Shown: piece by piece, positions 17,631 to 46,155 of the stretch
Numbering within the stretch: position 1 is the first letter of the stretch
Layout: every line of letters starts with the position of its first letter
DNA from: a virus
Taxonomy: Duplodnaviria > Caudoviricetes
DNA: 54,566 bases
Virus record (IMG/VR): IMGVR_UViG_3300025168_000112
Coordinates: 1 to 54,566 of that record
Strand: one strand, 5' to 3'
Notes under the pieces: model-generated
The model's input: only the letters and a program-made list of their open reading frames with translations
Database searches by the model: none
What the model was told of the DNA's origin: nothing
Translations under genes and position numbers: made by a program

Positions 17631-20600
17631 TTATAACCCGTGCTTTTCATTATAATCTGCTCGAGCTTTATTTACCGCTTTATCTTCATCTTCTTTCGAA
17701 ATAGTAGGATTTTTAGCTTTTATTTGCTGTCTAGCTAAAACTTCACTAAATCCAGCGCCTCTTTCATTAGTTCCGGCTCCCTCTCCAATAGCTCTTATTT
17801 CTTGTTTATTTATACCTGTCTGAATTATATTTTTTACTCCTGTAAGTATAGGGTCTATTGTAGCTTGTCTACGCTGTCTTAAGAATGCGTCTTGTGCTCT
17901 ATCTTCGTTTTCAAGTCTTACGTTATACCTGTCAATAACAGCTGCATTTTCTCTATCTGCAGAAAATTTGTTTTTAGCATTTTCAGTATTTTCACTAATA
18001 GATGCAGCTAAATTAACTCTATTTGCTTCTGCCCGTACTTTATTATCTGCGGATATTTTATCGTTATATGCTAGCTGTGCAGAAGCTTCAAGTCCTGTAC
18101 CATAACCTTTTTGTTCGCTTTCTTTAAACCTTTTTACATAGTTCCTTTGGTTTTCAGCTAACCCTTCTCTAGGACTAACACGATCGTTTCTAATTCTATC
18201 TGCTTTTATTATTTGAGGTTTTCTAATTTCAACATCTTCTCTTTCAGTTAAGCCTGCTGTTATAGATGCCCCTATAGCTGCTGCTCCTTGTATCCATGGT
18301 ATATGTCCACCTGAATTTGTCCAACGTTTAAACCCAGATACCTCTCCTGTCCCTCTTTTATATTTAGGAAGAGACCCTCCGTATTTTGCTATATTCAAAG
18401 TTTTAGGATACTCTTTGTCTCCGGGTTTTGCAGGACTTTCTCCCCTAGCTCTTTTAGCATGTATATTAGCCCACAGCCCTGGTCGTCCTCCTTTTCCATA
18501 TTCCATCATTCCCCCATACTTTCCCATTGGCACATCAGGTGGTGCCATCATATCTTTTGACTCTTGAGGATTACCAGCACGTCCTGCTAGTTTTTCTTGT
18601 AGCATCTTAAGTTGGTCTATTTCCTGTGGAGTAGCACCGTTTTTTACAGCTGTTGCATATAGTTGAGCCATTGATCTTCCTTTATAAGTAAGATGATCAG
18701 ACCATACATAATCTCCTTCATTTAAAACTTCTGGTACACCACCTTTTTCATGTGTAGCTCCTACAACAAGTTCATCTGGTCCACCGTCTCGCATAATAAT
18801 TTCATCCTTCTCAACCTCTGCATTAGCTCTAGGTCTAGTAACTCCTTTTGTTACAGACATTCCCCCGTATCTATATTGAGGTAGGTATCCTCCTTTTCTA
18901 TATAAGTCTTTCATAGTTCCTCCATATTTTGCCTCACCCATATTGTATTCAGCCTTTTCTTGAAGACCTCTTGGAGTTGCAATTCCACCTTCAACACTCC
19001 TAAGAGACTGTTCTTTACGTCCCATAAAGTTTTTAGCTGAAGTCCCACCTTTTGAAGTGGCTCTTTCTCTTGCAAGTTGTTTTTGTTCGCTTTTGTATTG
19101 TTCTGAGTCAGCTGCGGCATCTGCTGCATCGAAAAATTTTCCAACTCCAATCATACTTAATGCTGCCCTACCGTAATCTCCTTTAGCTGCATGATCAGCT
19201 ACACTCTCATAAAATGGAGTTGTTAAAGAACCTACAGCTGCTGCTGCTTCACTATCATAAACACTTACTTTTTCACCGCTTTTTAATCTTCTTTCTTCTT
19301 CTCCCAGAAGAGATCGAACTCCGCCCAGTGCCTGGTCAATTACACCAAAAACAGGAACAGCAGCTCCAATTGCAGCACCTACACCTTCTGATACACCTTC
19401 TGCTACTTGCTCTGATTTAAGCTGATTAGCGTCAAGATTATTTGCTCCTTGACTATAACTGTAAGGATTTTCTTGTTGAACTGCGTTCATCTCAGGAGCA
19501 TAAGACATTTCTCCTCCTGTTTGTTTTTTAGGTAAACCCGTTGTATTTCTCATATACTCATACAGATTATATTTGCTCACCCCTCCATTTGGGTTTAGTG
19601 CATTTGCACGTCCAGCTTCTATTTGAGGATTCCCACTTGGCACGTATTTAGGCTGAGTAGGATCTTGTGTAATAGCAATTTTTTCGTTTTCTGTAAAAAA
19701 TCCTGTCTTATCAAAAGCATTTGTTTTTTTCCAAGGCATTTCTCTATTTATAGAGGGGCTTGTATCATATGGGTTAGGCGTACCTTGTTGATATTTTGGT
19801 AATTCACCTCCCATTTCATATGTAGGAGCACCATATGTATAACCACTACTGTATCTTGAGTTTTCTAGTCCAGCTGCTTTATTTTTTGCATTAAGAAGAT
19901 CATAACTAAAGTTGTTTTGTTTTGCGTTTTTAAACGCTTTCATTTCATCATTTGCATTTTTAATGTTGCCTGCTACTTCCATACCAAAACCCACTGCTTG
20001 TAGAGCCGCGTTTCCAAAAGATTTACCTGCCCCTTTACCTGCCCCTTTATCGGCTCCACCAAATAAAGATGTTGAATTTTCTGTAACTACATTATCAGAT
20101 CTTAAGCCGTGTAAATACGTTGGTTTTTCTCCTGGAGGACCTTGCCAGGAGCCATAACCGTATTTAGGCAAACCGTCTTCTCTAGTCCCTCCGTATCTAT
20201 TTAAACTTACTGGAAATGTTTTTGAAGGTTGATACATTTTTTTTTCAAACTTAAAATCAAAAGAAGGGTTACCGGCCATTTCATTATTATATATAGCATC
20301 CTTTAGTTCGATTACATTTGGACTCATGCTAGTAGATGTATAAGGTCTAAATACATCTTTACTAGCTTGAACTGCACCTCTAGGATTTAATTCATTTACC
20401 CGTCTTTGATAGTCTTCTATATTAGCTTCATTCTTTGCTATTTCTCTACTAATGCGTTCTTCTGGAAATTCTTTTCTTACCTCTCTTTCAATGTATTCGG
20501 ATGCCATTTCATCTGACAAGCCTTCCATACCTGAAGCCCTCCATGCAGCCCTGTCTTTAGAGTCTAGTACCTCTCTAAGATTTTTATCTGGTAAATTATA

Positions 20601-21221
20601 AGAGCCAAGTGTAGATTGTTTTCTACCTGTTTCTAAAAAATGTTTTTCAGAGGCACTAAGTGGAGATGTACCATATTTACCGTAAACGTCAGTTACCATC
20701 TGCTCACGCTTTTTAGTAAAGTCTCCTACTCCTAATTCTTTTAAGTTTTTACCTTCATTTTCTAAAGCATTTAGAATTTTAGGATCTACAAATTTACTTA
20801 GCTGCTCTTTATAAGCAGCAGCAGTTTTTGCAGTTCTAGCTGCTCTTATACCTTGAGCTATACCCGCTGCACCTGCACCTAATAATTCTTCTGCAATAAG
20901 TTGATTGTGAAAATCTTGACTCATACGATCCCCCATAAACTGTGCATTAGGCGCACCTGGACTGTTTTTAGATAAAAAACTGGTTGGTGGATAATCTACT
21001 GTTCCTGATGTATAAGGATTTTGAGATTGAACTTCTCCAGACTGTATTCGTCTTTGTAAGTCTGCGGTATTTATCTCATTCTGACGCATAGCTGCATCTT
21101 GAGCTATAATATTTTCTACGTTTATAGGTGAAATATTAGATGCTGTAGTAGAAGCTGCTGCAGTTGTTGTTCTAGGGTCAGTACCATTACGATACATTTG
21201 TAAGAGTCGTTTCTTTTTCAT
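17631..21221 (-). CDS. Modular internal virion cargo protein with repeated KYGG / LPKYxxG motifs
   Basis: 1196 aa. ATG overlaps the upstream TGA (ATGA). Seven motif clusters, an AEVEKDE...GATHEKGGVP...LNEGDYVWSDHL domain, Gly/Ala hydrophobic helices and a C-terminal coiled coil. Confidence 0.7.
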   Translation of the reverse strand: MKKKRLLQMYRNGTDPRTTTAAASTTASNISPINVENIIAQDAAMRQNEINTADLQRRIQSGEVQSQNPYTSGTVDYPPTSFLSKNSPGAPNAQFMGDRMSQDFHNQLIAEELLGAGAAGIAQGIRAARTAKTAAAYKEQLSKFVDPKILNALENEGKNLKELGVGDFTKKREQMVTDVYGKYGTSPLSASEKHFLETGRKQSTLGSYNLPDKNLREVLDSKDRAAWRASGMEGLSDEMASEYIEREVRKEFPEERISREIAKNEANIEDYQRRVNELNPRGAVQASKDVFRPYTSTSMSPNVIELKDAIYNNEMAGNPSFDFKFEKKMYQPSKTFPVSLNRYGGTREDGLPKYGYGSWQGPPGEKPTYLHGLRSDNVVTENSTSLFGGADKGAGKGAGKSFGNAALQAVGFGMEVAGNIKNANDEMKAFKNAKQNNFSYDLLNAKNKAAGLENSRYSSGYTYGAPTYEMGGELPKYQQGTPNPYDTSPSINREMPWKKTNAFDKTGFFTENEKIAITQDPTQPKYVPSGNPQIEAGRANALNPNGGVSKYNLYEYMRNTTGLPKKQTGGEMSYAPEMNAVQQENPYSYSQGANNLDANQLKSEQVAEGVSEGVGAAIGAAVPVFGVIDQALGGVRSLLGEEERRLKSGEKVSVYDSEAAAAVGSLTTPFYESVADHAAKGDYGRAALSMIGVGKFFDAADAAADSEQYKSEQKQLARERATSKGGTSAKNFMGRKEQSLRSVEGGIATPRGLQEKAEYNMGEAKYGGTMKDLYRKGGYLPQYRYGGMSVTKGVTRPRANAEVEKDEIIMRDGGPDELVVGATHEKGGVPEVLNEGDYVWSDHLTYKGRSMAQLYATAVKNGATPQEIDQLKMLQEKLAGRAGNPQESKDMMAPPDVPMGKYGGMMEYGKGGRPGLWANIHAKRARGESPAKPGDKEYPKTLNIAKYGGSLPKYKRGTGEVSGFKRWTNSGGHIPWIQGAAAIGASITAGLTEREDVEIRKPQIIKADRIRNDRVSPREGLAENQRNYVKRFKESEQKGYGTGLEASAQLAYNDKISADNKVRAEANRVNLAASISENTENAKNKFSADRENAAVIDRYNVRLENEDRAQDAFLRQRRQATIDPILTGVKNIIQTGINKQEIRAIGEGAGTNERGAGFSEVLARQQIKAKNPTISKEDEDKAVNKARADYNEKHGL

Positions 21222-24200
21222 CGTTTATAAGTTCTAAAGTCTGCGAGCACTGTATACAAATTTACCAAATTGTTTGCTTCGTTATTACATGAGAGTCTTA
21301 TACCCATGTATTTGTCTATGAATTTGCTTTGCTTATACCACTCTTTATTAAAGTCTATGTAGTTAATATTCATTGGTTCATTGTAAGCTTCTGTTGTTGA
21401 TGCAGAAAACATACGATCCGTTATTGCAGTTATAGTTCCTGCGTTAGAGCCACCAAAAAGGTTTTGTCCTTGTGTTATATAGTTTGTACCAGTGAATGGT
21501 GTTGTTATGCCTGTGTAGTAATTACTTGTATCAGTAATTTCTTTAGACATATCTCTAAACTGGTTTACTTTCCAGTCTGTACCTATTCTTCTAGTGTTTA
21601 TTAGATACTCTAACGGATGCTCACCCGAAAGCATATCTGAATTATATGTAATATAAGAAGTAAATCCAGAGTTTAAGTCATTATTGTAGAGTTTATTACT
21701 AGAGCTATACTCTTTTGTATCTACAAAAAAACTAAAACTGTTGAACACCTTATCGATATTCGGAACCATATTAGATATTACTTCTATTTCGAATGGGTAA
21801 ATGGTTCCATAAAAATTACCCATATTATTGTAGTCGTTGTGCCTCCATATACTTCTTTGAATATCTGAGTCCGTGCTTTCAGTAAAAGAAAACACATCTA
21901 TTCCGGAATAAGAATACATATAAGGAACATAGTCATGGAAGCTTTCCCAAGAACCTAGTTTGTTTTGAACCAAATTAGAAAAAACAAAAGAAATAGTCCA
22001 AGACTTCCTTTCAAATAAATCATCTCTTGACCCTGTTATTTGTGTGCTATCAAGATTTATAGGTTCCCAACTACTTAAGTTTTGGCCTATTGTTGTCCAT
22101 CTGTAGTAAGTCCCATTAATATATACTATACCATATGCTCCTGCTTGTGCTGCAGCATTTAAAGACGTATAAGCTCCACTCCATTCTCCTATAAAAGCAG
22201 CTGTTGGTGCAAGATCTCTTTTTGTTATTATAATTCTTGAGAATCTTTCATCATATACTGCATGGAATCCCATGCCTGTAATAAAACTATCTGTTTTACC
22301 ATGAAACCCATAGTCTTCTAAAGCATATGGCATGTTGTCTTGCAACCAATTTGACATACCATATTTTTCACCCGAAATCTCTTCTGCTCCTTTACCTAAA
22401 AGAAACATTTTTCTATCAATATTATCAACAAAAAAGTACCCTTGCGGTGTAACAATATTTGCAAATTGAGACCTTGTACCTAAATATCCAGAATCTGTGT
22501 GTTGTACTAAGTCCGGTTCTTGAGTAAAAATATCTCCTTGACCAATAAAAGCTTCATTGCCTTCAGAGACTTTCATTTTTTGCTTACCCTTTGTTTGATA
22601 CAAAGCGTCTTCCATATGGAATAATAAAAGATTACCTACAGCGGTTATCTTCCATAATTCTCCATATCTATTATTAAGTTCTCTTAATTCACCAAATGAA
22701 TACTTTCTGTAGTTATCTGATAATTTAGAAGATGTTGTCTTAGCAGAACGTATAATTCTTACAGGGTGGTTTTCTGGTTGCTCAAGTACAAAAGGAAAAG
22801 GCAATACAACTTTAATATTATTTATAGATGAGTAATCTTCGTTGTATCTTATTTTTCCTGTAGTAAGATCGGGGTTATAATGAAGGTCTATTCTTGCATC
22901 TGCGTTTAATACAGCCTTTAAAGATGCTCCAGGAAAGTAAGGCTCATCGTCATTATCTATGTGTCTGTAGTTTATATTTTCTGTGCTTTCAGTAATACAA
23001 GCTATAACAGACTTCATATCTTTAGCTTGGTTTCCATCTGGAGTTAAACTAACCTCTTCTCTAGAGGTCATCCTGTAACCATACCTACTTATATAAGTAT
23101 CGCCTCCATATACATCATCAGTACAAAATTGATCGGGCCCACTGTATATAGGAGAGTTATTTTCATCTAAAATAAATTTATTAAGATCATCTCCTACTAC
23201 TTCATATCCTGTCCACACTAAATTTTGTGAGTCTACTGCATTATAAACATCAGATTTAAATGCTTTAAGGTTTGCTAAATATAGTTGAAGACCATCAAAA
23301 GCTTCAGGAGATCCAGGAAGTTGTCCTCCATCGTCATCTAATTCTATAGTGTTTGTAGTATAAGATACAAACTCAGTTCTTGCACCTTCACTCCTTTGAT
23401 TTCTCCAACTAGAAGATGGATTAGAAACTAAATGCGGTAAATATCTTAATGGCTTTAAAGCTATGTGAGTTTGTCCCCCTTGATTATATATGTCATGCTC
23501 AAATCCTTGGTGTGTTCCTTCATAAATACTATCTCCTAAAATATAAGCTTTTGACTTATCTGAAAGAAGATAATTTAATCTTGTATTTATTCCTTGTATT
23601 CTAAACTGCTCTCCTGCTATATGAAAAGAAGTTATAGTATCTGGTTTCCTGCAACTATAAAAAGGTTCATCTGTAGAACTTTCAGTATCAGTGTACTTAC
23701 CATCTACATTGAATTTTACAGGTCCTTTAAAATTTGCCATACACAAAACATACTGAAGTTTTATATGTGTAGCAGCAGCTAATGATGGGTGCCTGTTTAA
23801 TAAATAAAAATCATGAAAAGAATAAACTGAAGATAGCTCAGGCTTTGTAGCATTTTTAGAAGAAGGCTGTCCAGTTTGTAACCAATAATCAAATTTACCT
23901 ATACCAAGACCTCCCGTATCACACCGGGATGGATCCATTTCTTCTCTAAACTGCATAGGATGCATGGGAGCTTGACCTAATACAGTTCTTTGCTCGTGAG
24001 TCCTATCTGCGTAATAAATTCTAAATCCCTGTACTTTATCTGCAATAGACTTAGGTATTTTAATGTCTGAAAATTTAATTCCTAAAGGTTGAACATGATG
24101 TGTTAAAGGAATATTTTCATTTGAATTTGATACAGGTGTATCTGGTTCTACCCAAGCTGCCCATCCTGGCCTGTTGTTTCCAATAATTTCATCAAGATCT

Positions 24201-26515
24201 CTTAATAAAATATCGTCTCCAGAATATCCAGAAACACTTGCAAAAGACACACCCCCTGCGCAATGTCCAATTAAACTTGGTTGAAGGTCAATGCCAGGAG
24301 CTCTGTCATATGCTATAACTAACTGCATTCCTTCTGGAGGCTGGGAGTCATACATAAATGTTAAATCTGAGTATTCAGTTATATCTGTTCCCCAAATAGT
24401 ATTTAAAGGCTGGTTCGGGTTTACATCCGTAGGCCAATTATAAAAATACTCATGTGAAGGAGGGTAACAAGATTTTGTAGTATCAGTTTGTCCGTTTGGA
24501 GCTTCAGCAGTAATATCATTAGGAGTACCACCTAAACCTGCAGGAGAGCTTGGTAATGAACCAGTACCTGGATATGGTCCATTAGGAGGTGCGTTATTAA
24601 AATAGAAAGCTCTGTACCAAGTGTTGTCATCATGGGCATCAGTACCATGTCCCGTGCTAGTTCCTCCCATAGGGGTTCCATAATTATCGTTTTGCCACTC
24701 CTGTGCGGCATTAGGGTCTTCATTAGTATAACGACCTCTTATTAAACTTTCACTATCATCAAGTTGCCCAAACCAAAACCAGTGTACACTTGCTTTTTTA
24801 TCATTATCTAAAGTGGTAAAAACTTGATCATCAACACTTTTTACAGTGGTAAACTCTTCATTTCTGTTAGAAGGAAATCTATGATGTCTTACATTTTCTC
24901 CCTGTAAAGAAGGTATACTTAAAGTAGGGTCTTGAGCATTTACTACTTCAAAATTTTCATTATTGGGATAAAACTCATGTAGGTTATGCCAATAATTCAT
25001 ATTTCTAGAACCTTTAAACGTTAAATGAGAAAAGTCATAAAAATGAAATAAGTATCCTTGAGGATTGTCTGTGCTTGTAAGATTAATAATTTGCCAATCA
25101 CCTACAAGTCCATATCCATTTTGATATAAAGACCACCCTTCATTAACAAAAGGTGGGTTAGTATCTCCCATTAACTCATTAACAAGATTTGGATCTAGAT
25201 TTGATATAGGCTCTCTTCCAGGAATATGATAAGCATATGACATTTTTCCTGACTTGAGAATAAAAGCTATATAAAATGCATATACTTCTTCTCTTGTATA
25301 CCCTTTATAGCTATAAATATTTTTTGGGTATCTATATCCTTTTTTTATAGAATTATTAGTAGACCTTTTTAATTCAAAAAAATCATCTGTAATAACCATA
25401 GGGTCAAAAGGATCAAACTTGTGTTCCGGATCTTTTAATACTACAGCCTCAGACTTAATAAAGTTTGCATATTTTTGATATCCTATGTCTATATCAGAAG
25501 TAAGATTTCCTAAATAAAGAACACTATCTAACTGCTCTATTGTTTTAGCAGTTAGATACTCTGGCATATCTATAGTAACAGCATCTATAGAAGATGTAGC
25601 TTGAGATTCTTCTCCACTATATGTTATTTGAAAAGTATCCCTGTCATATATTTCTATATTATGAAGTCTAACAGCGGTTATTACTCCGTTTATTTTTTGA
25701 AGTATCTGAACTGATAAATATTTCATATCAGTATTTATATTTGATACCTCCCAAACAATAGATTTACCTGTTAATACACCCCCTTCACCTCCATCATAAC
25801 TTTCTATAGGAGATACTCCTTCTGGGTCATCTACAATTGAAACCGGATTAGCTACAGTTAAATAGTTTGTTGTATTTATATCTTCATCTGTGTAAGCAAG
25901 AGTTATATAGTATACACCTGTAAGACATCCTCCACCTGTAAATACATTTACTAACTCTACGTGTGGAACTGGTCCAGCATGTGGAAATAAATTTAAGATG
26001 TTTACAAAAAAAGAATCAGGGGAGCTTACAGCAAACTTACCATATATACTATTGTTAGAAACAGGGAGCTGCCTAGTTATATTAAGAACTCTAGGAGGGT
26101 TTAAATCATCTGTCCAATACACTATAAGATCGCCATCTCCCTGCTCTTTAAAGGTTCCTTGTATAGGGTTAGAAGCTTGAAAGTTTAAATCTGTAGCATG
26201 ACCGTTAAGAGCTGGTTGCAGATTTAGTATAGTTTGATACGCATCGTTTTTATAAACACCTATTATAGAATCATCTCCTACTTTTAAAAACAAAACTATA
26301 TCATTATTTGTAAGAGGAATAGTTCCTATTACAATAGCACCTACAGGCAACGATTCTACTTTTACATTACCAGGTTCGTTAGATACAGCCGCAGTAGTGT
26401 TGTTTATACTCGCATTACGTGCGAATCTTAACGAACCTGGGGGCTGATCTACGTGGGACGTATCTTTAAATAGACCCCTTATAAATCTTAATACTCTGTT
26501 TCCTTCTTCAGCCAT
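21218..26515 (-). CDS. Tail stabilization protein (crAss Tstab/muzzle-like)
   Basis: 1765 aa, beta-rich. Motifs GLFKD, VYWTDDLNPPRVLNI, GGDTYI, WTISF...WESFHDYVP. Directly follows the tail tubular gene, as in crAss-like gene order. Confidence 0.8.
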   Translation of the reverse strand: MAEEGNRVLRFIRGLFKDTSHVDQPPGSLRFARNASINNTTAAVSNEPGNVKVESLPVGAIVIGTIPLTNNDIVLFLKVGDDSIIGVYKNDAYQTILNLQPALNGHATDLNFQASNPIQGTFKEQGDGDLIVYWTDDLNPPRVLNITRQLPVSNNSIYGKFAVSSPDSFFVNILNLFPHAGPVPHVELVNVFTGGGCLTGVYYITLAYTDEDINTTNYLTVANPVSIVDDPEGVSPIESYDGGEGGVLTGKSIVWEVSNINTDMKYLSVQILQKINGVITAVRLHNIEIYDRDTFQITYSGEESQATSSIDAVTIDMPEYLTAKTIEQLDSVLYLGNLTSDIDIGYQKYANFIKSEAVVLKDPEHKFDPFDPMVITDDFFELKRSTNNSIKKGYRYPKNIYSYKGYTREEVYAFYIAFILKSGKMSYAYHIPGREPISNLDPNLVNELMGDTNPPFVNEGWSLYQNGYGLVGDWQIINLTSTDNPQGYLFHFYDFSHLTFKGSRNMNYWHNLHEFYPNNENFEVVNAQDPTLSIPSLQGENVRHHRFPSNRNEEFTTVKSVDDQVFTTLDNDKKASVHWFWFGQLDDSESLIRGRYTNEDPNAAQEWQNDNYGTPMGGTSTGHGTDAHDDNTWYRAFYFNNAPPNGPYPGTGSLPSSPAGLGGTPNDITAEAPNGQTDTTKSCYPPSHEYFYNWPTDVNPNQPLNTIWGTDITEYSDLTFMYDSQPPEGMQLVIAYDRAPGIDLQPSLIGHCAGGVSFASVSGYSGDDILLRDLDEIIGNNRPGWAAWVEPDTPVSNSNENIPLTHHVQPLGIKFSDIKIPKSIADKVQGFRIYYADRTHEQRTVLGQAPMHPMQFREEMDPSRCDTGGLGIGKFDYWLQTGQPSSKNATKPELSSVYSFHDFYLLNRHPSLAAATHIKLQYVLCMANFKGPVKFNVDGKYTDTESSTDEPFYSCRKPDTITSFHIAGEQFRIQGINTRLNYLLSDKSKAYILGDSIYEGTHQGFEHDIYNQGGQTHIALKPLRYLPHLVSNPSSSWRNQRSEGARTEFVSYTTNTIELDDDGGQLPGSPEAFDGLQLYLANLKAFKSDVYNAVDSQNLVWTGYEVVGDDLNKFILDENNSPIYSGPDQFCTDDVYGGDTYISRYGYRMTSREEVSLTPDGNQAKDMKSVIACITESTENINYRHIDNDDEPYFPGASLKAVLNADARIDLHYNPDLTTGKIRYNEDYSSINNIKVVLPFPFVLEQPENHPVRIIRSAKTTSSKLSDNYRKYSFGELRELNNRYGELWKITAVGNLLLFHMEDALYQTKGKQKMKVSEGNEAFIGQGDIFTQEPDLVQHTDSGYLGTRSQFANIVTPQGYFFVDNIDRKMFLLGKGAEEISGEKYGMSNWLQDNMPYALEDYGFHGKTDSFITGMGFHAVYDERFSRIIITKRDLAPTAAFIGEWSGAYTSLNAAAQAGAYGIVYINGTYYRWTTIGQNLSSWEPINLDSTQITGSRDDLFERKSWTISFVFSNLVQNKLGSWESFHDYVPYMYSYSGIDVFSFTESTDSDIQRSIWRHNDYNNMGNFYGTIYPFEIEVISNMVPNIDKVFNSFSFFVDTKEYSSSNKLYNNDLNSGFTSYITYNSDMLSGEHPLEYLINTRRIGTDWKVNQFRDMSKEITDTSNYYTGITTPFTGTNYITQGQNLFGGSNAGTITAITDRMFSASTTEAYNEPMNINYIDFNKEWYKQSKFIDKYMGIRLSCNNEANNLVNLYTVLADFRTYKR

Positions 26516-26517
26516 AT

Positions 26518-38096: not shown

Positions 38097-38992
38097 CGAA
38101 TAGCTTCACGGTGTTTGGACCTTAAAATATTTAAGAGACCTGAATTTTTTGGATTCTTAAAGAATATAATAGCTTCTTCTTCACTGTTTGAAATAGTATC
38201 ATTCATGTGAACTAAAGTTGTCCCCATTTTTTGAATAGTATCTGAAGAAAGAAAAGATGCTATTTCTGCTCTTATATCTAAATTTTCATCTAAAGAAGCC
38301 TCTAAGAATTTTTTAGGAGTAGACTGTTTGATGTCATAAAGCATGTTTTCAATGCTTTCTGTGTCAAAATTTTCTACTTTAACCGTACCTAAAACCTGTA
38401 AAAGATTTTTCATACGTTCAATATCTTCTGTTGCTTTTATAAACTCTCTATCTGCGCGTTTAGCTATTTGAACAGAGTTGTTTTTAGTTTTAACTTCCTT
38501 TCTAGGATCCATGATAAAAAACCTTTTTCTAGGATCTTTTAGCATTTCTGCTTCGGAGTCTGCTACTAAAGAATGTTTTTTTGCAAAGTTATAATGTATA
38601 AAGTCAAGAAGATTTAATGGAGATCCGTCTTGATTTGCTCCTATTTCTAATTCTTTACCAGAAAATCCTACTGAAATTCGTAGTTCTGCCCAGAATCGTC
38701 GAACATATTTAGACCAATCTCTATCATCAGGGTCTACATCTAAAACCTCTGCTAAATATTTTTTTTCATCTGAAACCGACAAACCTTTTAAAGGCTGTCT
38801 ATTTACAAAAATGCTAGAGAGTTTTGACACTGCTTCAGCTCTTACTTCTTTTGGTAAATGGTTTAAGATAGGACGTCTACGAAGATAAACTTTATGAGTT
38901 CCGTATTCTACTTCCTTTATCAGTGAGTTTTTTTCGGTTACTGATTCTTCCGATGTTTTTGTGGCAAAATGTGCCTTTACTTTTGTTTTCAT
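38093..38992 (-). CDS. Conserved crAss-like protein downstream of major capsid (function uncertain)
   Basis: 299 aa. FWAELRI...PLNLLDFIHYNFAKKHSLVA...RFFIMDP...FFKNPKN; position. Confidence 0.62.
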   Translation of the reverse strand: MKTKVKAHFATKTSEESVTEKNSLIKEVEYGTHKVYLRRRPILNHLPKEVRAEAVSKLSSIFVNRQPLKGLSVSDEKKYLAEVLDVDPDDRDWSKYVRRFWAELRISVGFSGKELEIGANQDGSPLNLLDFIHYNFAKKHSLVADSEAEMLKDPRKRFFIMDPRKEVKTKNNSVQIAKRADREFIKATEDIERMKNLLQVLGTVKVENFDTESIENMLYDIKQSTPKKFLEASLDENLDIRAEIASFLSSDTIQKMGTTLVHMNDTISNSEEEAIIFFKNPKNSGLLNILRSKHREAIR

Positions 38993-39019
38993 AGGTTCTT
39001 TCCAGATTTATAATTAAAA

Positions 39020-39092
39020 TTCCCACGGGTTAAAAAGAATAACTACCCCCGGGAAGGGGCAGAGTGAGCCCGAAAGCCCACCCTGCGGAGTT
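39020..39092 (-). terminator. GC-rich structured element (terminator/attenuator-like) after the major capsid gene
   Basis: 12-bp stem GCAGGGTGGGCT-TTCG-GGCTCACTCTGC, a second C/G hairpin, then TTATTCTTTTT. Confidence 0.65.
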
Positions 39093-39102
39093 TTATATGC
39101 TA

Positions 39103-40560: not shown

Positions 40561-40587
40561 TTGTTATTAATTTATAGTTTTTACTTA

Positions 40588-41676
40588 TTAAAATAGTCCG
40601 CCAACATCCAAGTCATCAAACTGAGAGTTTCCTCCCCCTTTATAATTTGGATTTGACTTTCCCCCTTTCACCTTCCCTGTGCTATTGGATTTAAGACGAT
40701 TTTTTAATGATTTAGCCGCCTCAGTTTTACCTTTAGTATTAATAAATTTTGCAAAGTCTTTCTTATATAAGAAATAGTCTGCAGCAAGTTTTTGATCTAA
40801 ACTCATTTTTTCTGTATCTAAATCCCTTTGTGTTCTACCATCTTTGGTAACTGGATCTGATATATAAGAAATGAATTTAGATTTGTCTCTTTCTGAAATA
40901 GGTAATCCAGAAAGATTAGAAGAAGACTTAACAGTTTCTTTTACGTTATTCCAAACTTGTTCAGATTCTTCTCTTTGTTTCTCTGCAAAAGAACGTTGCT
41001 CTTCAAGCATTCTATCTTGCTTTTGTTTTTGTGCTCCGGCAAGCGCTTCTTTAGCTTGATTTGCTTTTTGAAAAAGTGCATTTTTATCTTCATATGCTTC
41101 TATCATATCTCCAATAAAAGCTTTATCGTCTCCTCGTGCTACAAAGTAATCTGTAAGAATCTTTTTTTGAGACTCTTTATCATCTTCTCTCACTTCTACA
41201 GATTCATAATCTGTTTCTTTTTGAGAGTCTATAAATTGATTGGCGTTTCCACCATTCATTACAAAATCAAGATGTCTTTTTACAGATGGATGTGCATTAA
41301 AAATAGAATCTAAAGTTTCTTCAGCCATTTTTTCACTTACGTTTTTAGTAAGCTCTACAATGCCTTCAGTAGAATCTTCAAAGTCCCCGTCTATTTCATA
41401 ACCTAGTTTTGAAATTATTTCAGACACTACAGAGGAATCTTCTTCTTTAGCTTCCTCTGTAATAGGTTCTTCTACTGTAGGCTCTGGCTCTGAAGCTTCT
41501 AAAGTTTCGGGTTTATCTATGTCTTTTAGATCTTCCTTAGCCTCTGTTGTTTCTACAGTTTCTTTTGTTTCTTCTGTTTCCTCAATCTTTTCTGGAGCTT
41601 CTACAGTATCTTCAATAGATGCTATATCAAACTCAATGTCTAGACCGTCGTTATCAGATGTTTCTTTCCCTTCCAT
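40588..41676 (-). CDS. Acidic scaffold-like protein
   Basis: 362 aa, very Glu/Asp-rich N-terminus and coiled coil, directly upstream of MCP. Confidence 0.68.
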   Translation of the reverse strand: MEGKETSDNDGLDIEFDIASIEDTVEAPEKIEETEETKETVETTEAKEDLKDIDKPETLEASEPEPTVEEPITEEAKEEDSSVVSEIISKLGYEIDGDFEDSTEGIVELTKNVSEKMAEETLDSIFNAHPSVKRHLDFVMNGGNANQFIDSQKETDYESVEVREDDKESQKKILTDYFVARGDDKAFIGDMIEAYEDKNALFQKANQAKEALAGAQKQKQDRMLEEQRSFAEKQREESEQVWNNVKETVKSSSNLSGLPISERDKSKFISYISDPVTKDGRTQRDLDTEKMSLDQKLAADYFLYKKDFAKFINTKGKTEAAKSLKNRLKSNSTGKVKGGKSNPNYKGGGNSQFDDLDVGGLF

Positions 41677-41681
41677 GGATA

Positions 41682-41689
41682 CAAATTTA
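41682..41689 (-). promoter_or_regulatory. Bacteroidota -7 promoter element TAAATTTG upstream of scaffold/MCP
   Basis: TAnnTTTG match ending 5 nt before the ATG at 41676; no -33 TTTG at canonical spacing. Confidence 0.62.
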
Positions 41690-41758
41690 AAGTGTGTAAT
41701 TGAATATATAATATGTTGATATGATTTCGAGTGATGCTTTTATATTATGTCACTTATT

Positions 41759-44700
41759 TTATTTAGGATTGTAAACAATATTATAACCAGACCCTATTTC
41801 ATTTTCAAAACTTCCTGAACTATAGTCTATAAAGTCTTTTTCAGTAAGACCTTCTTTGTTTACAGCTATCATATTAAATCTTCCTGTATCAAGAGTTATG
41901 TACTTAGCGTCTTTATACTGTTTTTTAAATTTTTGAGATTCTTCACGCATTCCGTCTTTGTCATAGCCAAATAAAAATCGTTTTTGACCTGTAGAAGGAG
42001 AGTAAATTATCATTTTTCCACTAGCAGAATTAGTATATGCCGCTTCACCCTCTTTAGTTAACATTGGTGTAACTTCTTTAGAAGTCCGTTGTGTTCTACC
42101 GGCTGCAGAAACTTGCTTATTATAATACATAGTTTCTGATTTAGGTAGCTTTCCTTCTTTGTATAAATCGTAATCACCTCCCCACCTAATAGGCACAATA
42201 ACATCTTTATCAGAAAACTCATTTATTTTACCCACTTTAAATTCATTATTTACTATTCCGTAGTACTCTTGCTTTTCTGGATTAATATTTATTTTTTTTC
42301 CTTGACCCTCAAATCTTTGTGCCCCAGGTTTTTTATACTCAGACGCAAGTAATGCTGTAGGCTCATCCTCTAAAAAGTCTCCACCTAATATAGCTTTTCC
42401 TTCTACCTGCTCTCCTGCCCTTGCAAAAGATAAGTTTGGACCAGATATATCAAGAGTAAAAGGCTTTTTTGTAGTAGTGCCTCGATATATATTATTATGT
42501 TGAGCATTTCTTTTTGCTTCTTGTCTATTTTGATACAAGATCATACTAGGATCAAAATTACCTAGTTTTCTTTTTATAGTGGCAGTTGGAAGCGCATCTA
42601 ACCCTGTTCTATCAAATGTTTTTATTAAATCTGGATTTTGAGAGTGTATTTTATATTCATCTACATACCTTTTTACTGCAGGCGATGTTGAAATATATCC
42701 TGGATTATCTATATATTTTTGAACTTTTCCTTTTAAAGTATCTGGTTTTTTACCTGTTACAACCATTTCTGGTTGAGAATAAAGAGTTTCAAATACTTGC
42801 TCTCCTTCTGCAGTAAGATTTTTAGGATTTGTTTCTAATACAGTTCCTTTTTTTGGGCCCGCATCTTGATATTTTGGTAAATAACCCCCCATCCTAAGTT
42901 CTGGTAACGGTGCTAAAGCATTGTCTGTATTAGCAGGAATTTCTTCAAAGTCTCCTATAGGAGGTGGGGGTGTAAGAACACTGTCTGCAGGGGCAATTGT
43001 CCCAGATAGATACTCCTCTGCAAGTTCTTCAAGTGTTTTTGTTCCACCATTCTCTATAAGCTCTTCACTTAAAAGAAGTTCTGACATTACTTCATCAGGG
43101 ATTTGAGCTGCTATTTCAGGATTTACATCTGCCCATTGTCTAGCTACCTGTAAAGAGTCAGCTATATTAGGAGCTATCTGGCTACCTAATCCTTCTAACT
43201 CTGTCCCACTTAAAAGTTCTTTTATTTCTCTTCTGTTTATTGAAGGTATACTGTCTTCAGGTAAGTTAAATGTTTCGGAGAGATCTACAGTATCTGATAT
43301 TGCTTTACCGCTTTTTGCAATTGCCTTTCTTATTTCTTCTGGTGTAGAATTTATTACATCTATATCTTTGGATTCAGGCATTTCTATTTTAACATCTCCT
43401 ATAGTGCCTATTCTAAACATCTCATGCAGCTGTCTATTTGCTTCTGCTCCTCTAGCTGATACTAAAGGCGTAGTGTCTATTTCAGGTGTTTGAATAGATG
43501 CTGTAGGGAAACTCATATCAGGAGCAGAAACTCCAATGTTTGATATGGGAGAGGTTATAGGTTGTCTAGGCATACTTACACTTGGAGAAGATGGAATACT
43601 CATACCAGTGCTTGGGCTTGGCATACTTACACCTCTTTCAGGCATATTCATATTTGGTGCAGACATATCTACTCCTCTAGTAGGCATTCTAGACATTCCT
43701 GGTGCAGAAGGCGCAGGAGACAGTGATGGTCTTGAAGGTGAACTGATATTAGGTGTAGGCACACTAACACCACTTGATCTACTACTACTTGAGCTGCTTC
43801 TACCTCCACTAGATCCAGATGATTTAAAAAAATCTTGAACCTCTTGCCCAAACTCTTTTCTAGATTGAGCTCGCTCTTCACCTGCAGTTTTAGGTATTTG
43901 AGCAGTGTACCCAATTCTTTCTGCTTCTGTGTGATCTTTCTTTATTCCCTCATAATCTATTTCAAGAGCTAAAGCAAAGTCCTGTGCTAAATTAGTGTAA
44001 GAGCCTCTATCTAAATGTAAGTTTCTATAAATCTCAATTCCACCATCTATATCTGCTTTACCGTCTTTTACAAACTCATTTTCAAAAATTGCATCTATAC
44101 CTTTGTTGTGAGCTTTAAATATTAAATTTCTTTTAGTAAGAGTATCTAATGTATTCCATCTGCCCTCTCCCATACCAGCCTTAAGTAGCTGTATGTTTTT
44201 AGCTGTTAAAAGCATTGTTGCAGGAGCAGCGATAGAAGGATCATATATTGTTTCTGGATTTATACCATATCTTTTTTGGTAAGCTTTTCCTTCTTTACTA
44301 GCATACCATGATTTTGTTATAGAGCCTGACTCCATTTTAATTTGGGAGGGACCTTCACTTAAAGGATCAAAATTAAATATTTCATCTGCCAATTCTTTTC
44401 CAACTAACCACCTAGGAATATGTTCAAAGTCTTTAAATGTGTTTTTATAAGACCTGTACATTTTTCTTTTGACTACTCTTTCTTTGTATGCATCTATATC
44501 CATATCTGCAAAAGAACTTTCTTTTCCAAAAATGGCAAACGCAGAAGGCAATATAAGATTTTGCATATCTTCATCTGAGATATTAAAATCTTTCTGCACG
44601 TTAGGAGCATAAAATTCTAAACCTTTTAAAAACCCCCTACTATTCTTAACATATTTTCCTTTTATATTTTGCCACCTATTTAGAGTTTCTGGTGACATAT

Positions 44701-45745
44701 CTTGAGGAGTTCTAATGCCTGTAACTGATTTTATCTGTTGAGGGGCATCTGAAATTCTAATATTCCTAGTTACCTCCGTAAAAGCCGGCCTTACAATACC
44801 AGATACAAAATACCTTGGGTCTGTTCCTTTCCCAGTGCCATTTGCTTTTAAAATATCTTCAAATGGTTCAGTTTGCCAAGTACCGTAAATATTATGAGTT
44901 ATAAATTTATCTCCGTCTTCATCTTCTGTTACTTGACCTACATGCGTAGTATGAACATCTCCTGTACCCATTTTATTAGCTTCAGCTTGATATTTTGATC
45001 CGTGGTAGTACATTTCTACAACATCTCCTACCATTATATTATTTAACACTAAATCTAGGTCTTCTAACTTTCTTCTCTCTGTCATATTTCTTCTAAGATT
45101 GCTAGTATTTTTTCCGTGCAATCCATAAATTCTTTGTCCTCCAGAGTCTATTATATTTTGTCCTATAGTCCAACCATTTCCGTTAATACCTAAAATTGTT
45201 TTTTCAGCACCTGAGATGTAATTTTCAATAGTAGGATCCATAAAATTCCACTGTGTTCCTGCAGAACATTGAATTACATTTTTACCCCCGTACATACACT
45301 GAGTCTTGTGTTCTTTAAAGCCGTTAGGAAGTTCTTCTTGTATTACTTTATCTATATATTGTTGATAAGGTATTTGCTCCTCTGACACATTAGCTTGAGA
45401 CTCTAAAAAAATAGATTGTCCGGTTGGAAATTTACCATGCTTAGAAAAATACTCTACAGGATTTAAATGTCTATCCGCCTCTTGATCAAAAAGAACACTT
45501 GCAGCATCTACTATAGGGGTGTCTACATTAGTAGTTTCAACAGCGGTAGTTTGCGTAAGAGCATTAAGATCTACCCCTTCAAAATCATAAGAAGTTTCTG
45601 GTTTCTGAGGAGCAGGTTCTGTTTCTAATTCAGAAAGTGATTCTGTATTTATAGATGCAAGCTCTTCGTTCGTATATCCATCTGGAGATGCAAGAGGAGC
45701 AAGTGTTCCTAATTGATATTTTGGTAAGAGCTTTTTGTATTTCAT
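41759..45745 (-). CDS. Multidomain virion-associated peptidoglycan hydrolase: NlpC/P60-CHAP-like peptidase, lytic transglycosylase-like domain, Ser/Pro linker and unknown C-terminal module
   Basis: 1328 aa. QCSAG...GNGWT...VGDVV...THVGQV...ITHN (Cys-His papain-like); FGKESSF...GPSQIK...IYDPSIAAPAT...AHNKG (SLT motifs I-III); two LPKY motifs. Confidence 0.72.
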   Translation of the reverse strand: MKYKKLLPKYQLGTLAPLASPDGYTNEELASINTESLSELETEPAPQKPETSYDFEGVDLNALTQTTAVETTNVDTPIVDAASVLFDQEADRHLNPVEYFSKHGKFPTGQSIFLESQANVSEEQIPYQQYIDKVIQEELPNGFKEHKTQCMYGGKNVIQCSAGTQWNFMDPTIENYISGAEKTILGINGNGWTIGQNIIDSGGQRIYGLHGKNTSNLRRNMTERRKLEDLDLVLNNIMVGDVVEMYYHGSKYQAEANKMGTGDVHTTHVGQVTEDEDGDKFITHNIYGTWQTEPFEDILKANGTGKGTDPRYFVSGIVRPAFTEVTRNIRISDAPQQIKSVTGIRTPQDMSPETLNRWQNIKGKYVKNSRGFLKGLEFYAPNVQKDFNISDEDMQNLILPSAFAIFGKESSFADMDIDAYKERVVKRKMYRSYKNTFKDFEHIPRWLVGKELADEIFNFDPLSEGPSQIKMESGSITKSWYASKEGKAYQKRYGINPETIYDPSIAAPATMLLTAKNIQLLKAGMGEGRWNTLDTLTKRNLIFKAHNKGIDAIFENEFVKDGKADIDGGIEIYRNLHLDRGSYTNLAQDFALALEIDYEGIKKDHTEAERIGYTAQIPKTAGEERAQSRKEFGQEVQDFFKSSGSSGGRSSSSSSRSSGVSVPTPNISSPSRPSLSPAPSAPGMSRMPTRGVDMSAPNMNMPERGVSMPSPSTGMSIPSSPSVSMPRQPITSPISNIGVSAPDMSFPTASIQTPEIDTTPLVSARGAEANRQLHEMFRIGTIGDVKIEMPESKDIDVINSTPEEIRKAIAKSGKAISDTVDLSETFNLPEDSIPSINRREIKELLSGTELEGLGSQIAPNIADSLQVARQWADVNPEIAAQIPDEVMSELLLSEELIENGGTKTLEELAEEYLSGTIAPADSVLTPPPPIGDFEEIPANTDNALAPLPELRMGGYLPKYQDAGPKKGTVLETNPKNLTAEGEQVFETLYSQPEMVVTGKKPDTLKGKVQKYIDNPGYISTSPAVKRYVDEYKIHSQNPDLIKTFDRTGLDALPTATIKRKLGNFDPSMILYQNRQEAKRNAQHNNIYRGTTTKKPFTLDISGPNLSFARAGEQVEGKAILGGDFLEDEPTALLASEYKKPGAQRFEGQGKKININPEKQEYYGIVNNEFKVGKINEFSDKDVIVPIRWGGDYDLYKEGKLPKSETMYYNKQVSAAGRTQRTSKEVTPMLTKEGEAAYTNSASGKMIIYSPSTGQKRFLFGYDKDGMREESQKFKKQYKDAKYITLDTGRFNMIAVNKEGLTEKDFIDYSSGSFENEIGSGYNIVYNPK

Positions 45746-46155
45746 CGCTTTCTTTTATAATTTCTCATATTCTCTGCTATAATAGACTTGTAACTTCCTC
45801 CAAAGTCTGCCATAGGTAATGAAGGAGTTTCTAAAACATCTACACCTTCTCCAGTATTTACTAATTCTCCTGGCTGTACATTAGGTATGTGAGAGGCTAC
45901 TAATCCAGTTTGTTGATCTATAGTAGTAAGATCTATAGGACCATCTTGAGCTCCCCGTATACTTTCAGCTCCAGGTATAATCATAGGTCTAAGACCTTGT
46001 CCGTCGTCTAAACCTACCTCTGCCTCTTGCTGCGTTCCCGCTACTTCTGCTTGAGCCATTTGCTGCTCTGCAATCATTTGCTTTTCAATTTCAGGTCCCA
46101 TAGGCCCTCTATGATGATTTGCATAGAGTTGCTTCATTACGTCAATAGCTTCCAT
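45742..46155 (-). CDS. Small putative virion protein downstream of portal
   Basis: 137 aa, translationally coupled on both sides (TAATG, ATGA); ends ...VLETPSLPMADFGGSYK. Confidence 0.6.
   Translation of the reverse strand: MEAIDVMKQLYANHHRGPMGPEIEKQMIAEQQMAQAEVAGTQQEAEVGLDDGQGLRPMIIPGAESIRGAQDGPIDLTTIDQQTGLVASHIPNVQPGELVNTGEGVDVLETPSLPMADFGGSYKSIIAENMRNYKRKR

Follow-up and report, generated by a model that had tools for sequence, protein, structure and literature searches.

The crAss-like Bacteroides phage crAss001 encodes, directly after its muzzle gene, the cargo protein C1 (gp45; PDB 7QOG, 7QOI, 7QOJ, 7QOL, 8CKB; Pfam PF25725). Residues 425-552 of gp45 have been modelled on the portal wing (Bayfield et al. 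2023, PMC10172136, accessible text), and the same text describes T7 gp14/gp15/gp16 and P22 gp7/gp16/gp20 as ejection proteins that are stored in the capsid and leave it first. In phages and conjugative elements, another class of large modular proteins, the polyvalent proteins, has been described (Iyer, Burroughs, Anand, de Souza, Aravind 2017, PMC5512222, accessible text).

We analyzed the virion module of a divergent marine crAss-like phage, a stretch of 54,566 nucleotides (IMG/VR record IMGVR_UViG_3300025168_000112; hereafter the window), on whose minus strand all features below are located. It encodes a portal protein (46155..48401; PHROG 6547, E 9e-107; 494 relatives in IMG/VR), a muzzle protein (21218..26515; Pfam PF25731, E 3e-48) and, upstream of the capsid gene, a scaffold-like protein (40588..41676). 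The latter, assigned by position and composition only, has an acidic N terminus, a coiled-coil-like middle and an acidic C-terminal motif, which reads ..D[IL]DDLDL.. at the C termini of 21 relatives. Immediately downstream of the muzzle gene, and overlapping it by 4 bases, lies the gene of the 1196-residue P0001 (17631..21221), which is cargo-protein-1-like (C1-like) by the position of crAss001 gp45. Following the portal gene are the genes of P0003 (137 residues; 45742..46155) and, overlapping by 4 bases, of P0002 (1328 residues; 41759-45745). P0001 and P0002/P0003 probably sit in the virion and are injected.

P0001 and P0002 are strings of swappable modules in which a short conserved Tyr/Gly-Gly peptide is found at every seam and also at several protein ends. 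The full unit of this tag, [KR][YM]GG-x-LPKY-x-x-G[G/T], is made up of two halves, an A-part ([KR]-[YM]-G-G) and a B-part (L-P-K-Y-x-x-G-[G/T]). In a logo of 92 tags, G is followed by a final G in 57 and a final T in 35, and the residue after the tag varies, Pro being the commonest (16/92). Our literature search found no paper that describes this tag. P0001 starts with KKRLLQMYRNGT (residues 3-14, 21180-21215), a basic-plus-tag start common to 18 of 25 C1-like relatives. Its internal tags comprise the cluster LNRYGGTREDGLPKYGYGS (RYGG...LPKYGYGS; residues 340-358, 20148-20204), which lies in coil and is conserved in the relatives P0005 and P0006; EMGGELPKYQQGTP / EMGGELPKYQQGT (residues 469-482, 19776-19817) and TGLPKKQTGGE (residues 561-571, 19509-19541), the left and right edges of one swappable cassette; the double tag AKYGGTMKDLYRKGGYLPQYRYGGM (AKYGG..YRKGGYLPQYRYGG; residues 764-788, 18858-18932), just upstream of a portal-binding-like domain; GKYGGMMEYGKGGR / GKYGGMMEYGKGG (residues 900-913, 18483-18524), at the downstream edge of that folded domain; and AKYGGSLPKYKRGTG / AKYGGSLPKYKRGT (residues 945-959, 18345-18389). 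P0002 has an N-terminal tag, KYKKLLPKYQLGT (residues 2-14, 45704-45742), with an identical start in loci L011 and L012 and a related one in L013 and L017, and an internal tag, LRMGGYLPKYQDAGP / LRMGGYLPKYQDAG (residues 950-964, 42854-42898). P0003 ends in ...PMADFGGSYKSIIAENMRNYKRKR, a degenerate A-part (ADFGG) followed by a basic tail. All the clusters listed in the original prediction for the three proteins were thus found, within a few bases of where it had placed them.

The tag is restricted to these presumed cargo proteins. LPKY occurs three times in P0001 and twice in P0002, but not once in the other 27 ORFs of the window (15,044 aa), in line with the prediction, which saw no LPKY in capsid, portal or tail proteins; shuffling gave means of 0.012 and 0.019, and none of 5000 shuffles reached the observed count for either protein. 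The 8-residue pattern LP[KQ][YK]..[GA][GT] was found four and two times, respectively, and nowhere in the other ORFs. In P0002 the looser patterns give a weaker signal: Y..G[GT] is present twice against a shuffled mean of 0.62 (636/5000 shuffles reaching 2), and [KRM][YM]GG twice against a mean of 0.088 (18/5000 shuffles); of the latter two, MYGG at residue 151, within an enzyme-like domain, is probably no tag. The rest of the window proteome contains Y..G[GT] four times and [KRM][YM]GG once. Scanning a relative genome, G001 (91% complete, 62 ORFs, 25,598 aa), with three patterns likewise singled out the two orthologues (5/5/3 and 3/7/5 matches), every other ORF having at most two matches in total. 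Tags are near-absent from its replication genes and from its giant proteins at the RNA-polymerase position. The DNA differs between copies, in agreement with the prediction that conservation is at the peptide level: LPKYxxGx cores share 11-20 of 24 bases and make use of four Leu codons. Because codons vary between copies, the constraint must act on the peptide.

The internal tags lie between predicted folded domains. AlphaFold2 (AF2) modelled six of six internal P0001 clusters as coil (pLDDT <50) flanked by confident blocks, which bears out the claim that the motifs fall between distinct segments. Cassettes are exchanged at these sites, as also proposed. Similarity blocks between relatives stop at tags far more often than expected: at 97 of 164 internal HSP ends (3.3 expected), both partners carry a tag no more than 12 residues away. 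The pairs in this statistic are related and non-independent, and tags, as conserved islands, tend to end alignments nearby. The HSPs of P0001 with P0005 and with P0006 both stop at P0001 residue 563; the P0001 cassette after the tag at residues 469-482 matches part of P0011 with 97% identity; in P0005 a different cassette takes its place. P0005, which is C1-like, shares a cassette (68% identity) with P0014, which is post-portal, and in both it has a tag at either end. P0006 lacks the 45 residues that separate the KYGG of the tag at residues 900-913 from the next KYGG in P0001. In this stretch P0001 has a mini-module, GLWANIHAKRARGE.PAKPGDKEYPKTLN (residues ~913-947, 18381..18485), that is flanked by tags, is absent from P0006 and has PHROG matches and 60-83% identity to ORFs of T4-like cyanophages (>100 matches). 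The internal tag of P0002 marks the site at which P0014 has ~460 additional residues, two cassettes, between two tag copies (HSPs 1-1032/1-1062 and 950-1328/1424-1809).

Such a pattern could arise if the tag were a passive hinge and recombination seam, a flexible turn, rich in Gly and containing Tyr/Pro, that allows each module to unfold and thread on its own and persists through recombination between copies, the terminal copies being leftovers of fission and fusion. The predicted coil and the tag-to-tag indels in P0006 and between P0002 and P0014 agree with this, and some copies share up to 15-20 of 24 bases, sufficient for microhomology. However, ordinary linkers do not keep a consensus of 13-14 residues among proteins from phages with a portal identity of only ~50%, and the free codon choice points to selection on the peptide. 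N-terminal tags are moreover retained in those 18 relatives and in crAss001, and a hinge would be superfluous at extreme protein ends. We regard a purely passive role as doubtful.

The terminal tags have forms of their own. N-terminal tags, present in 18/25 C1-like relatives against 14/763 ORFs generally, consist of a lone B-part after a few Lys/Arg, whereas C termini are capped by a lone A-part and a basic tail (..YGGYRKKFRKKKRK in relatives). A C terminus of the "GG + basic tail" type was found in 30/763 ORFs, about 24 of them from the post-portal family; the C terminus of P0001, unlike its N terminus, has no tag. Short basic extensions past GG at both ends look like removable propeptides, a point against an uncut chain. 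An HMM of the P0003 "head" retrieved 49 distinct ORFs directly after portal genes, 22 fused, 13 separate and 14 open-ended, with an aromatic-x(0-2)-GG close to the head end in 32 of the 49. P0003 is the detached head of the post-portal gene, which is split into P0003 and P0002 here and fused in 22/49 relatives; there are hence two loci rather than the three unlinked cargo proteins first proposed. The border between the two genes falls inside a tag, i.e., gene fission took place at a tag.

The half-tags at the P0003 C terminus and the P0002 N terminus are complementary exactly where relatives are fused. This would suit multivalent Tyr/Lys/Gly "stickers" through which cargo self-associates into a condensed body in the cargo zone or, in a variant, A-parts at one C terminus pair with B-parts at the next N terminus to form a continuous string; the many copies per protein and the Y-G-G/K composition would suit it too. 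Against this, the giant proteins at the RNA-polymerase position, expected in the same zone, are without tags, and P0001 is tagged at its N terminus but not at its C terminus. Self-association of this kind seems very improbable.

Between its N-terminal and internal tags, P0002 comprises an acidic stretch, a Cys/His papain-like region (possibly CHAP/NlpC-like), a transglycosylase-like region recognized by eye and a Ser/Pro-rich stretch; a C-terminal module follows. No Pfam or PHROG family matched P0002. Only weak leads speak for the original designation as a hydrolase, among them ESM Atlas clusters of the CHAP/NlpC-P60 type (0.87-0.88). Its relatives P0018 and P0019 have a Phage_lysozyme module, and HExxH modules were seen by eye in P0019.

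The structure of gp45 bears on whether the tags are cut. The P0001 domain at residues ~787-897 (..EIIM..GATHEKGGVP..GDYVWSDHL.. plus helices; 18531..18863; AF2 pLDDT 84-94), bracketed (taken as 790-890) by the tags at 764-788 and 900-913, had as its top match among 48,161 solved chains 7qog_M, which is gp45 (Z 3.8, next Z 2.6; rmsd 2.9 A over 68 residues, 21% identity). With hhalign, the C-terminal part of P0001 alone matched gp45 (probability 78%); PF25725 (crAss_CARG1) did not match P0001, nor did PDB sequence and profile searches return a match. The homology between this domain and gp45 is accordingly weak. The gp45 protein, which starts MAKKKIKRRGKMPPNIFDTGG and ends ..EYTGGTKKAKGGKVRTKKKKGLTYG, carries [AF][YF]GG tags at its N terminus, at seven or so internal sites and before its basic C-terminal tail. 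The double tag of P0001 forms the conserved columns KYGG.M..Y..GG in alignment A1 (the 25-member family of P0001 relatives) and in A2, and by eye it aligns with AFGGWLNTQGG (residues 425-435) of gp45. Residue 425 begins AFGGWLNTQGGDF, and 7qog_M has 126 modelled residues, so the first of them is 425-427 and the chain continues past GG427-428 and GG434-435. The gp45 tag is thus ordered on the portal, whereas AF2, modelling the free protein, leaves its P0001 counterpart disordered. This continuity would extend to the present tag insofar as one [AF][YF]GG, not LPKY, tag of a distant relative, equated by eye, is its equivalent. A second resolved piece of gp45, residues 214-245 in the tail barrel, starts 4 residues past GG209-210 and ends ahead of the tag at 260-265; both resolved pieces thus begin at a tag or just past one, and the start at 214 also fits a cut.

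Maturation cleavage by a phage or host protease, which would trim basic leaders and tails and free modules such as cell-wall enzymes and channel formers, in the manner of adenovirus core proteins and T4 internal proteins, would explain why tags lie precisely where one module meets the next and only a few residues away from either protein end. It would yield the same mature products from split and fused genes and, if gp45 is cut at its tags, explain why a single protein is observed in two compartments. The papain-like region of P0002, itself a lead, and the HExxH modules of P0019 could be sources of such activity. However, the single gp45 chain runs through AFGGWLNTQGG; the final T in 35/92 tags and Pro as the commonest residue after the tag are unlike a Gly-Gly protease site, and the adenain preference for M/I/L at P4 is not followed. 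No peptidase family was found among 28 (PHROGs) or 18 (Pfam) window ORFs or, for G001, among the ORFs covered by the Pfam scan (53 of 62); a novel or host protease could escape both collections. Gels of crAss001 virions show bands at 85 and 100 kDa, sizes near the 90.8 kDa of full-length gp45, and the accessible text of the structure paper mentions neither cleavage, a protease nor the tag motif (PMC10172136). Precedents are the cut P1 proteins DdrB/DarA and the processing by embedded peptidases proposed for polyvalent virion proteins (PMC5512222, accessible text). On balance we consider cleavage unlikely.

Three observations make us lean toward an uncut chain: the gp45 model runs through a tag, we found no protease gene, and the tag ends in either G or T. 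In this tentatively preferred reading, the tag is a seam-and-end handle of two modular cargo proteins, held by the particle; docking handle and cutting site are both candidate, unproven functions. These two, the C1-like and the split post-portal protein, would be packed in the virion and ejected first. The tag would be an extended, recognizable element in the flexible coil that connects modules folding on their own and would presumably bind a virion component, candidates being the portal wing, the tail lumen and the scaffold. Holding by tags may keep these proteins, built like beads on a string, in order both when they are loaded and when they thread N-to-C out of the tail. With the same tag flanking every module, in-frame recombination or deletion between tags would swap cassettes and leave the rest unharmed.

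Several known systems share parts of this arrangement. Adenovirus protease acts at defined sites and has the pVIc tail, and ASFV and poxviruses process polyproteins at Gly-Gly/Ala-Gly. As there, short Gly-Gly motifs recur here in several internal virion proteins and, as in adenovirus, relatives have a short basic tail past the last site. In contrast, we found no clan-CE or other protease, the hydrophobic P4 rule does not hold, Thr often replaces the second Gly with Pro often next, and the equivalent gp45 site is uncut in the solved virion. The capsid-targeting sequences of T4 internal proteins, which gp21 removes after Glu, and the cargo-loading peptides of encapsulins are short terminal peptides common to unrelated cargo that let foreign modules load into an HK97-fold shell. 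Those are single and terminal, whereas the present tag is also internal, at every seam, with a putative receptor. The tagged proteins may also be compared with the ejection proteins of T7 and P22, which breach the wall and build a conduit, T7 gp16 including a transglycosylase part; we know of no description of a recurring junction peptide or of cassette exchange in them. Polyvalent proteins are likewise large, virion-delivered and composed of many shuffled unrelated modules, including peptidoglycan-cutting enzymes, and are likewise encoded among late/virion genes, with processing into units proposed; the accessible text uses neither "linker" nor "crAss" and describes no conserved junction peptide (PMC5512222). 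In the window's proteins we did not detect the zincin peptidase that is their hallmark, and the domain assignments in P0002 are leads. In gp45 as in P0001, the N-terminal region is hydrophobic and rich in Gly, the C-terminal part is long and helical, and there is a small beta-plus-helix domain (GGSHEE..DDYVFSD in gp45, GATHEKGG..GDYVWSD in P0001), but the tag of P0001 is longer and more sharply defined (GG-x-LPKY-xx-G[GT]) and P0001 has additional cassettes.

All large ORFs of the window except one lie on the minus strand and constitute the virion module of a divergent crAss-like phage. In gene order, these are the large terminase (48449-50470), the portal (46155-48401), P0003 (137 aa, 45742-46155) and P0002 (1328 aa, 41759-45745), a scaffold-like acidic protein (40588-41676), a crass-type major capsid protein (39103-40560), tail ring proteins, the muzzle protein (21218-26515), the cargo-protein-1 (C1)-like P0001 (1196 aa, 17631-21221), a 700-aa ORF, a 4326-aa ORF and the beginning of another giant ORF. 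The terminase shares at most ~40% identity with any catalogued Crassvirales, and the portal has 494 relatives in IMG/VR. As the genome record is the window itself, non-virion genes were checked instead in a relative genome, G001, which is 91% complete (78.8 kb) and has its gene order in common with the window. The 4-base overlaps of the muzzle gene with P0001 (21218-21221) and of P0003 with P0002 (45742-45745) suggest that each cargo gene may be translationally coupled to the gene before it. Cysteines were also found at the facing ends of two consecutive cargo genes, the 4326-aa protein ending in DPTECP (2514-2540) and the next giant ORF beginning with MACSVKQ (2480-2503).

The motif clusters claimed by the original prediction were all found in place. 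LPKY occurs three times in P0001, twice in P0002 and nowhere in the other 27 ORFs (15,044 aa), a count reached by none of 5000 composition-preserving shuffles of P0001 or of P0002. Looser half-patterns were significant in P0001 and, on their own, not significant in P0002. Codon usage varies freely between tag copies, so the peptide is the conserved entity, as had been supposed. The consensus of 92 distinct instances from 32 related proteins, K-x-G-G-x-[L/M]-[P/K]-K-Y-Q-x-G-[G/T], indicates a bipartite tag with [KR][YM]GG as its A-part and LPKYxxG[GT] as its B-part; both are present at internal seams. The sortase-like LPXTG motif, the double-glycine bacteriocin leader and the N-glycosylation sequon do not fit this consensus. 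The predicted restriction of the tag to presumed virion cargo was upheld in G001: rather than being equally frequent in non-virion proteins, tags are abundant in only 2 of its 62 ORFs, the orthologues of P0001 and P0002, and neither the replication genes nor the giant RNA-polymerase-position proteins are tag-rich.

Tags also occupy the ends of these proteins. The N-terminal form consists of a few Lys/Arg residues followed by the B-part (MKKKRLLQMYRNGT in P0001, MKYKKLLPKYQLGT in P0002). It is found in 18 of the 25 C1-like relatives, compared with 14 of 763 ORFs in general for the same pattern, and the C1-like relatives devoid of it look like 5′-truncated gene calls. At the C terminus, the post-portal family carries a cap made of the A-part and then a basic tail, e.g., ..NRYGGYRKKFRKKKRK; this arrangement ends 30 of the 763 ORFs, ~24 of which belong to that family. 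That the tag acts as a multivalent sticker, or pairs such proteins end to end, is a reading to which we give very little credence. Two relatives have an additional ORF with a tag-like N terminus, located after the portal gene and before the gene that bears the P0003-type head described below (locus L023, 10277-10981, starting MSSAKKIVEKYRTGG..; locus L078, 10293-11534, starting MCKPCQAELAKYKSGG..). The scaffold-like protein was considered as a fourth tag bearer on account of an NYKGGG sequence near its end and was set aside, as the motif is missing from most C termini of the 21 relatives listed. Most of these 21 scaffold-like ORFs, located upstream of the capsid gene (loci L016-L090), have a conserved acidic C-terminal motif, ..[VF]D[IL]DDLDL[SN]I, which reads ..FDDLDVGGLF in the window (40588-40640). 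This acidic C terminus might be a partner for the basic caps at either end of the tag-bearing cargo.

The motif had been described as common to three unlinked proteins; our analysis reduces these to two loci. With an HMM of P0003, we identified a P0003-type "head" at the start of the OR­F downstream of the portal gene in 49 distinct relatives. As in the window, 13 of these have a free-standing head ORF (119 to 161 aa), and 22 have the head fused to a modular protein of 368 to 2257 aa; in the remaining 14 the head-bearing ORF runs off the contig. Its C-terminal sequence is ..GTVIE[T/S]P..Y[K/Q].GG, with an aromatic-GG near the end in 32 of 49 cases, and in the fused forms the head is followed by ..KYQ.GG and then by the modules. 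In the window, P0003 ends in ...PMADFGG and a basic tail, and after the 4-base overlap P0002 starts with its N-terminal tag. Together, these features identify the P0003/P0002 border as a gene split inside a tag. The MADFGG motif of P0003, the weakest item of the original prediction, is validated by homology, but P0003 is one half of a gene and not an independent third protein.

Comparison of orthologues bore out the idea that modules are exchanged at motif boundaries. P0002 has one tag at a site where its 80%-identical post-portal relative P0014 has two, with ~460 additional residues between them. P0018 and P0019, two further relatives of P0002, align collinearly as far as one tag and resume at a later one, and the intervening segments are unrelated. 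Relative P0006 is devoid of precisely the 45-residue segment that separates two KYGG copies in P0001. A cassette of ~185 residues, delimited by a tag at either end, occurs in both the C1-like P0005 and the post-portal P0014 at 68% identity, showing that cassettes move between the two cargo genes. In BLASTP comparisons of 25 proteins, 97 of 164 internal block ends had a tag within 12 residues in both partners, compared with 3.3 expected at random positions; this represents a strong tendency and not a probability, because the pairs are related and non-independent and conserved tags tend to anchor the alignment ends. The tag could be simply a passive hinge and recombination seam, yet it is kept at the very ends of proteins, where a mere hinge would be needless, and we consider this explanation quite unlikely.

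Some exchanged modules have recognizable features. A module bearing an HExxH signature (..AAIHEVSHSSD.., ..TMAHEGSHSAD..) was seen by eye in P0019, in two copies located between tags at residues ~1040-1500, where P0018 has an unrelated module; from this signature, the two copies are possible zincin peptidases. A 35-residue mini-module, GLWANIHAKRxRGExPAKPGDKxYPKTLN, is found between tags at residues ~913-947 of P0001 (18381-18485). It is 60 to 83% identical to ORFs of T4-like cyanophages (S-ShM2, S-RIM14, P-SSM7 and others) and is the source of most of the 430 library-search hits, which come from proteins of widely differing length; in some of these, such as P0039, it occurs twice. It also provides the only match of P0001 in a tblastn search of 50,697 phage records.

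No Pfam or PHROG family was found in P0002, and tblastn against the same 50,697 records gave no match. Visual inspection of its sequence suggests a papain-like region with Cys...His and another that is transglycosylase-like, and ESM Atlas returned CHAP/NlpC-P60 clusters at only 0.87-0.88, which we treat as a lead. Its relatives P0018 and P0019 match Phage_lysozyme at 26.2 and 25.3 bits, just above the Pfam cut-off of 22.3. From this putative CHAP/NlpC-like lead and the lysozyme matches, the tag would be a mark of proteins expected to breach the cell envelope; RNA-polymerase-position proteins are not marked by it. Between the enzyme-like half of P0002 and its next module lies a long Ser/Pro/Met-rich low-complexity stretch (..SSGSSGGRSSSSSSRSSGVSVPTPNISSPSRPSLSPAPS.., residues ~640-760, window ~43460-43830), kept in kind and not in sequence in P0014.

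The original prediction placed the motifs between distinct segments, and structure prediction agrees. An AlphaFold2 model of P0001 built with 25 relatives has a mean pLDDT of 52, with confident blocks at ~630-720, 790-890 (pLDDT 84-94), 1000-1120 and 1160-1196, and all six internal tag clusters fall in predicted coil with pLDDT < 50. The 790-890 domain is flanked by tags at 764-788 and 900-913. When this domain was modeled alone, a wide VIA-align search ranked 7QOG chain M, the portal-bound piece of gp45 (cargo protein 1, C1, of Bacteroides phage crAss001), first among 48,161 chains; by absolute standards the match is weak (Z 3.8; 68 residues aligned at an rmsd of 2.9 A; 21% identity), the next one having a Z of 2.6. 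The same search with the full-length model returned just long-helix look-alikes (Z <= 8.1) and was uninformative. The P0001 gene is directly downstream of the muzzle gene and is followed by the C2 and giant RNA-polymerase-position genes; the order muzzle, P0001, 700 aa, 4326 aa is the same in G001 and in crAss001 gp44-gp47. Foldseek found nothing at E <= 0.001 with the full-length or domain models, PF25725 (crAss_CARG1) matched neither P0001 nor four relatives even at E <= 10 while gp45 scores 222 bits, and profile comparison of P0001 and gp45 linked only the C-terminal helices. Accordingly, the C1-like label of P0001 is based on its position, its architecture and a weak match in fold, and does not make it a proven family member. 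A domain HMM from the 25-member alignment gave only 2 to 4 bits on gp45, aligning DYVWSD with DYVFSD at residue 480, and PDB sequence and profile searches with P0001, P0002 and that alignment found nothing at E <= 1. Complex prediction with the portal and P0001 756-915, using the portal and domain alignments, scored 0.00 in two control-free runs and has no weight on the question of binding, in either direction.

The layout of gp45 matches that of P0001, with the tag spelled differently. It starts with MAKKKIKRRGKMPPNIFDTGG, has internal tag-like sites at AYGG (209), AFAEGGG (263), KAFGG (332), AYCGG (391), NAFGG (427), NTQGG (434) and FAYGG (562), and ends with EYTGG followed by a basic tail. 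According to the crAss001 structure paper (Bayfield et al., PMC10172136), it is resolved as two pieces, one within the tail barrel (214-245) and one bound to the portal wing (425-552), and is read as one chain threaded through the portal. The former begins four residues after GG209-210, and the latter begins with AFGGWLNTQGGDF and stops seven residues before FAYGG. Since the portal-bound piece begins with a tag, the chain is modeled through two Gly-Gly pairs, and the tag is ordered when the domain is on the portal. In that paper, the words cleavage, protease and scaffold have 0 occurrences. The gel of crAss001 virions, as described in the isolation paper (Shkoporov 2018), has thirteen bands, including one of 85 kDa and one of 100 kDa. 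The quoted gp45 tryptic peptides (79-101, 181-190, 275-300, 307-320) were discarded as cutting evidence: their ends are ordinary K/R sites and thus silent on cutting at tags.

These data bear on whether the tag is cut. If it were a protease site, the copies a few residues from both protein ends would resemble propeptides that are trimmed off, the split and fused gene forms would give identical mature products, and tag-delimited pieces would explain why gp45 is seen in two compartments; processing of virion polyproteins is reported for other phages (PMC5512222). However, gp45 425-552 was modeled through its tag. Moreover, the last tag residue is T in 35 of the 92 instances (G in the other 57), and the next residue, without preference, is P in 16 (M 13, Y 11, G 8...). 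Family searches found no peptidase by PHROGs in 28 window ORFs or by Pfam in 18 window ORFs and 53 of the 62 G001 ORFs, although a novel or host enzyme is possible. Gly-Gly protease sites of the adenain/ASFV type have an invariant G-G and a hydrophobic P4 (M/I/L). In contrast, the tag ends in G or T with a Y/Q-type P4, counted from its end in the 92 instances, and does not fit that consensus; adenain/ASFV substrates also have a cognate protease gene, and none was detected by family search in the window or G001. Altogether, we regard cutting at the tag as unlikely, while giving it real weight.

We favor the interpretation that the tag is an uncut handle at seams and ends, a preference held tentatively and a little short of an even chance. 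It is favored by the continuity of the gp45 chain through the tag in the solved virion, the persistence of tags at the very ends of proteins, the alternation of G and T at the final position with Pro often next, and the lack of a detectable peptidase gene. According to such a mechanism, the portal wing, the tail lumen or the scaffold would recognize the tag, and recognition would load cargo organized as beads on a string and hold it in order for N-to-C ejection. Uniform tag seams would also make cassette exchange and gene fission harmless. A broader proposal is that the tag represents a general address code of crAss-like virions: tag-flanked or half-capped modules would be loaded via a portal, scaffold or tail-lumen receptor, held in ejection order and injected, with cassettes traded freely between the two cargo genes and a cargo gene even split at a tag with delivery intact. 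We deem this generalization doubtful; if true, it would offer a portable handle to load chosen proteins into the most abundant gut and ocean phages.

Crassvirales are among the most abundant phages known. The crAss001 structure raised the question of the mechanism by which ~5 MDa of protein is loaded as cargo and ejected, and a conserved peptide at seams and ends offers a concrete target for mutation with which to address it. The tag is found only on cargo expected to breach the envelope, brackets the one domain known on the portal and delimits the units exchanged between genes and phages. It also gives a second reading of the presence of gp45 in both capsid and tail, as one threaded chain or as tag-delimited pieces, and, if the tag is a loading signal, it could serve to package foreign proteins. 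A literature search of main texts returned no prior account of a junction peptide of this kind. The polyvalent proteins of Iyer et al. (2017) unite at least two different effector or enzyme domains in a polypeptide encoded among virion genes, an architecture for which P0002, with its CHAP/NlpC-like lead, is at most a candidate. They also have an embedded processing zincin as their hallmark, a metallopeptidase family that family searches did not detect in the window ORFs or in G001. A short peptide common to the termini of otherwise unrelated cargo is a feature that the tag has in common with known terminal cargo-loading tags, the CTS of T4 and the CLP of encapsulins.
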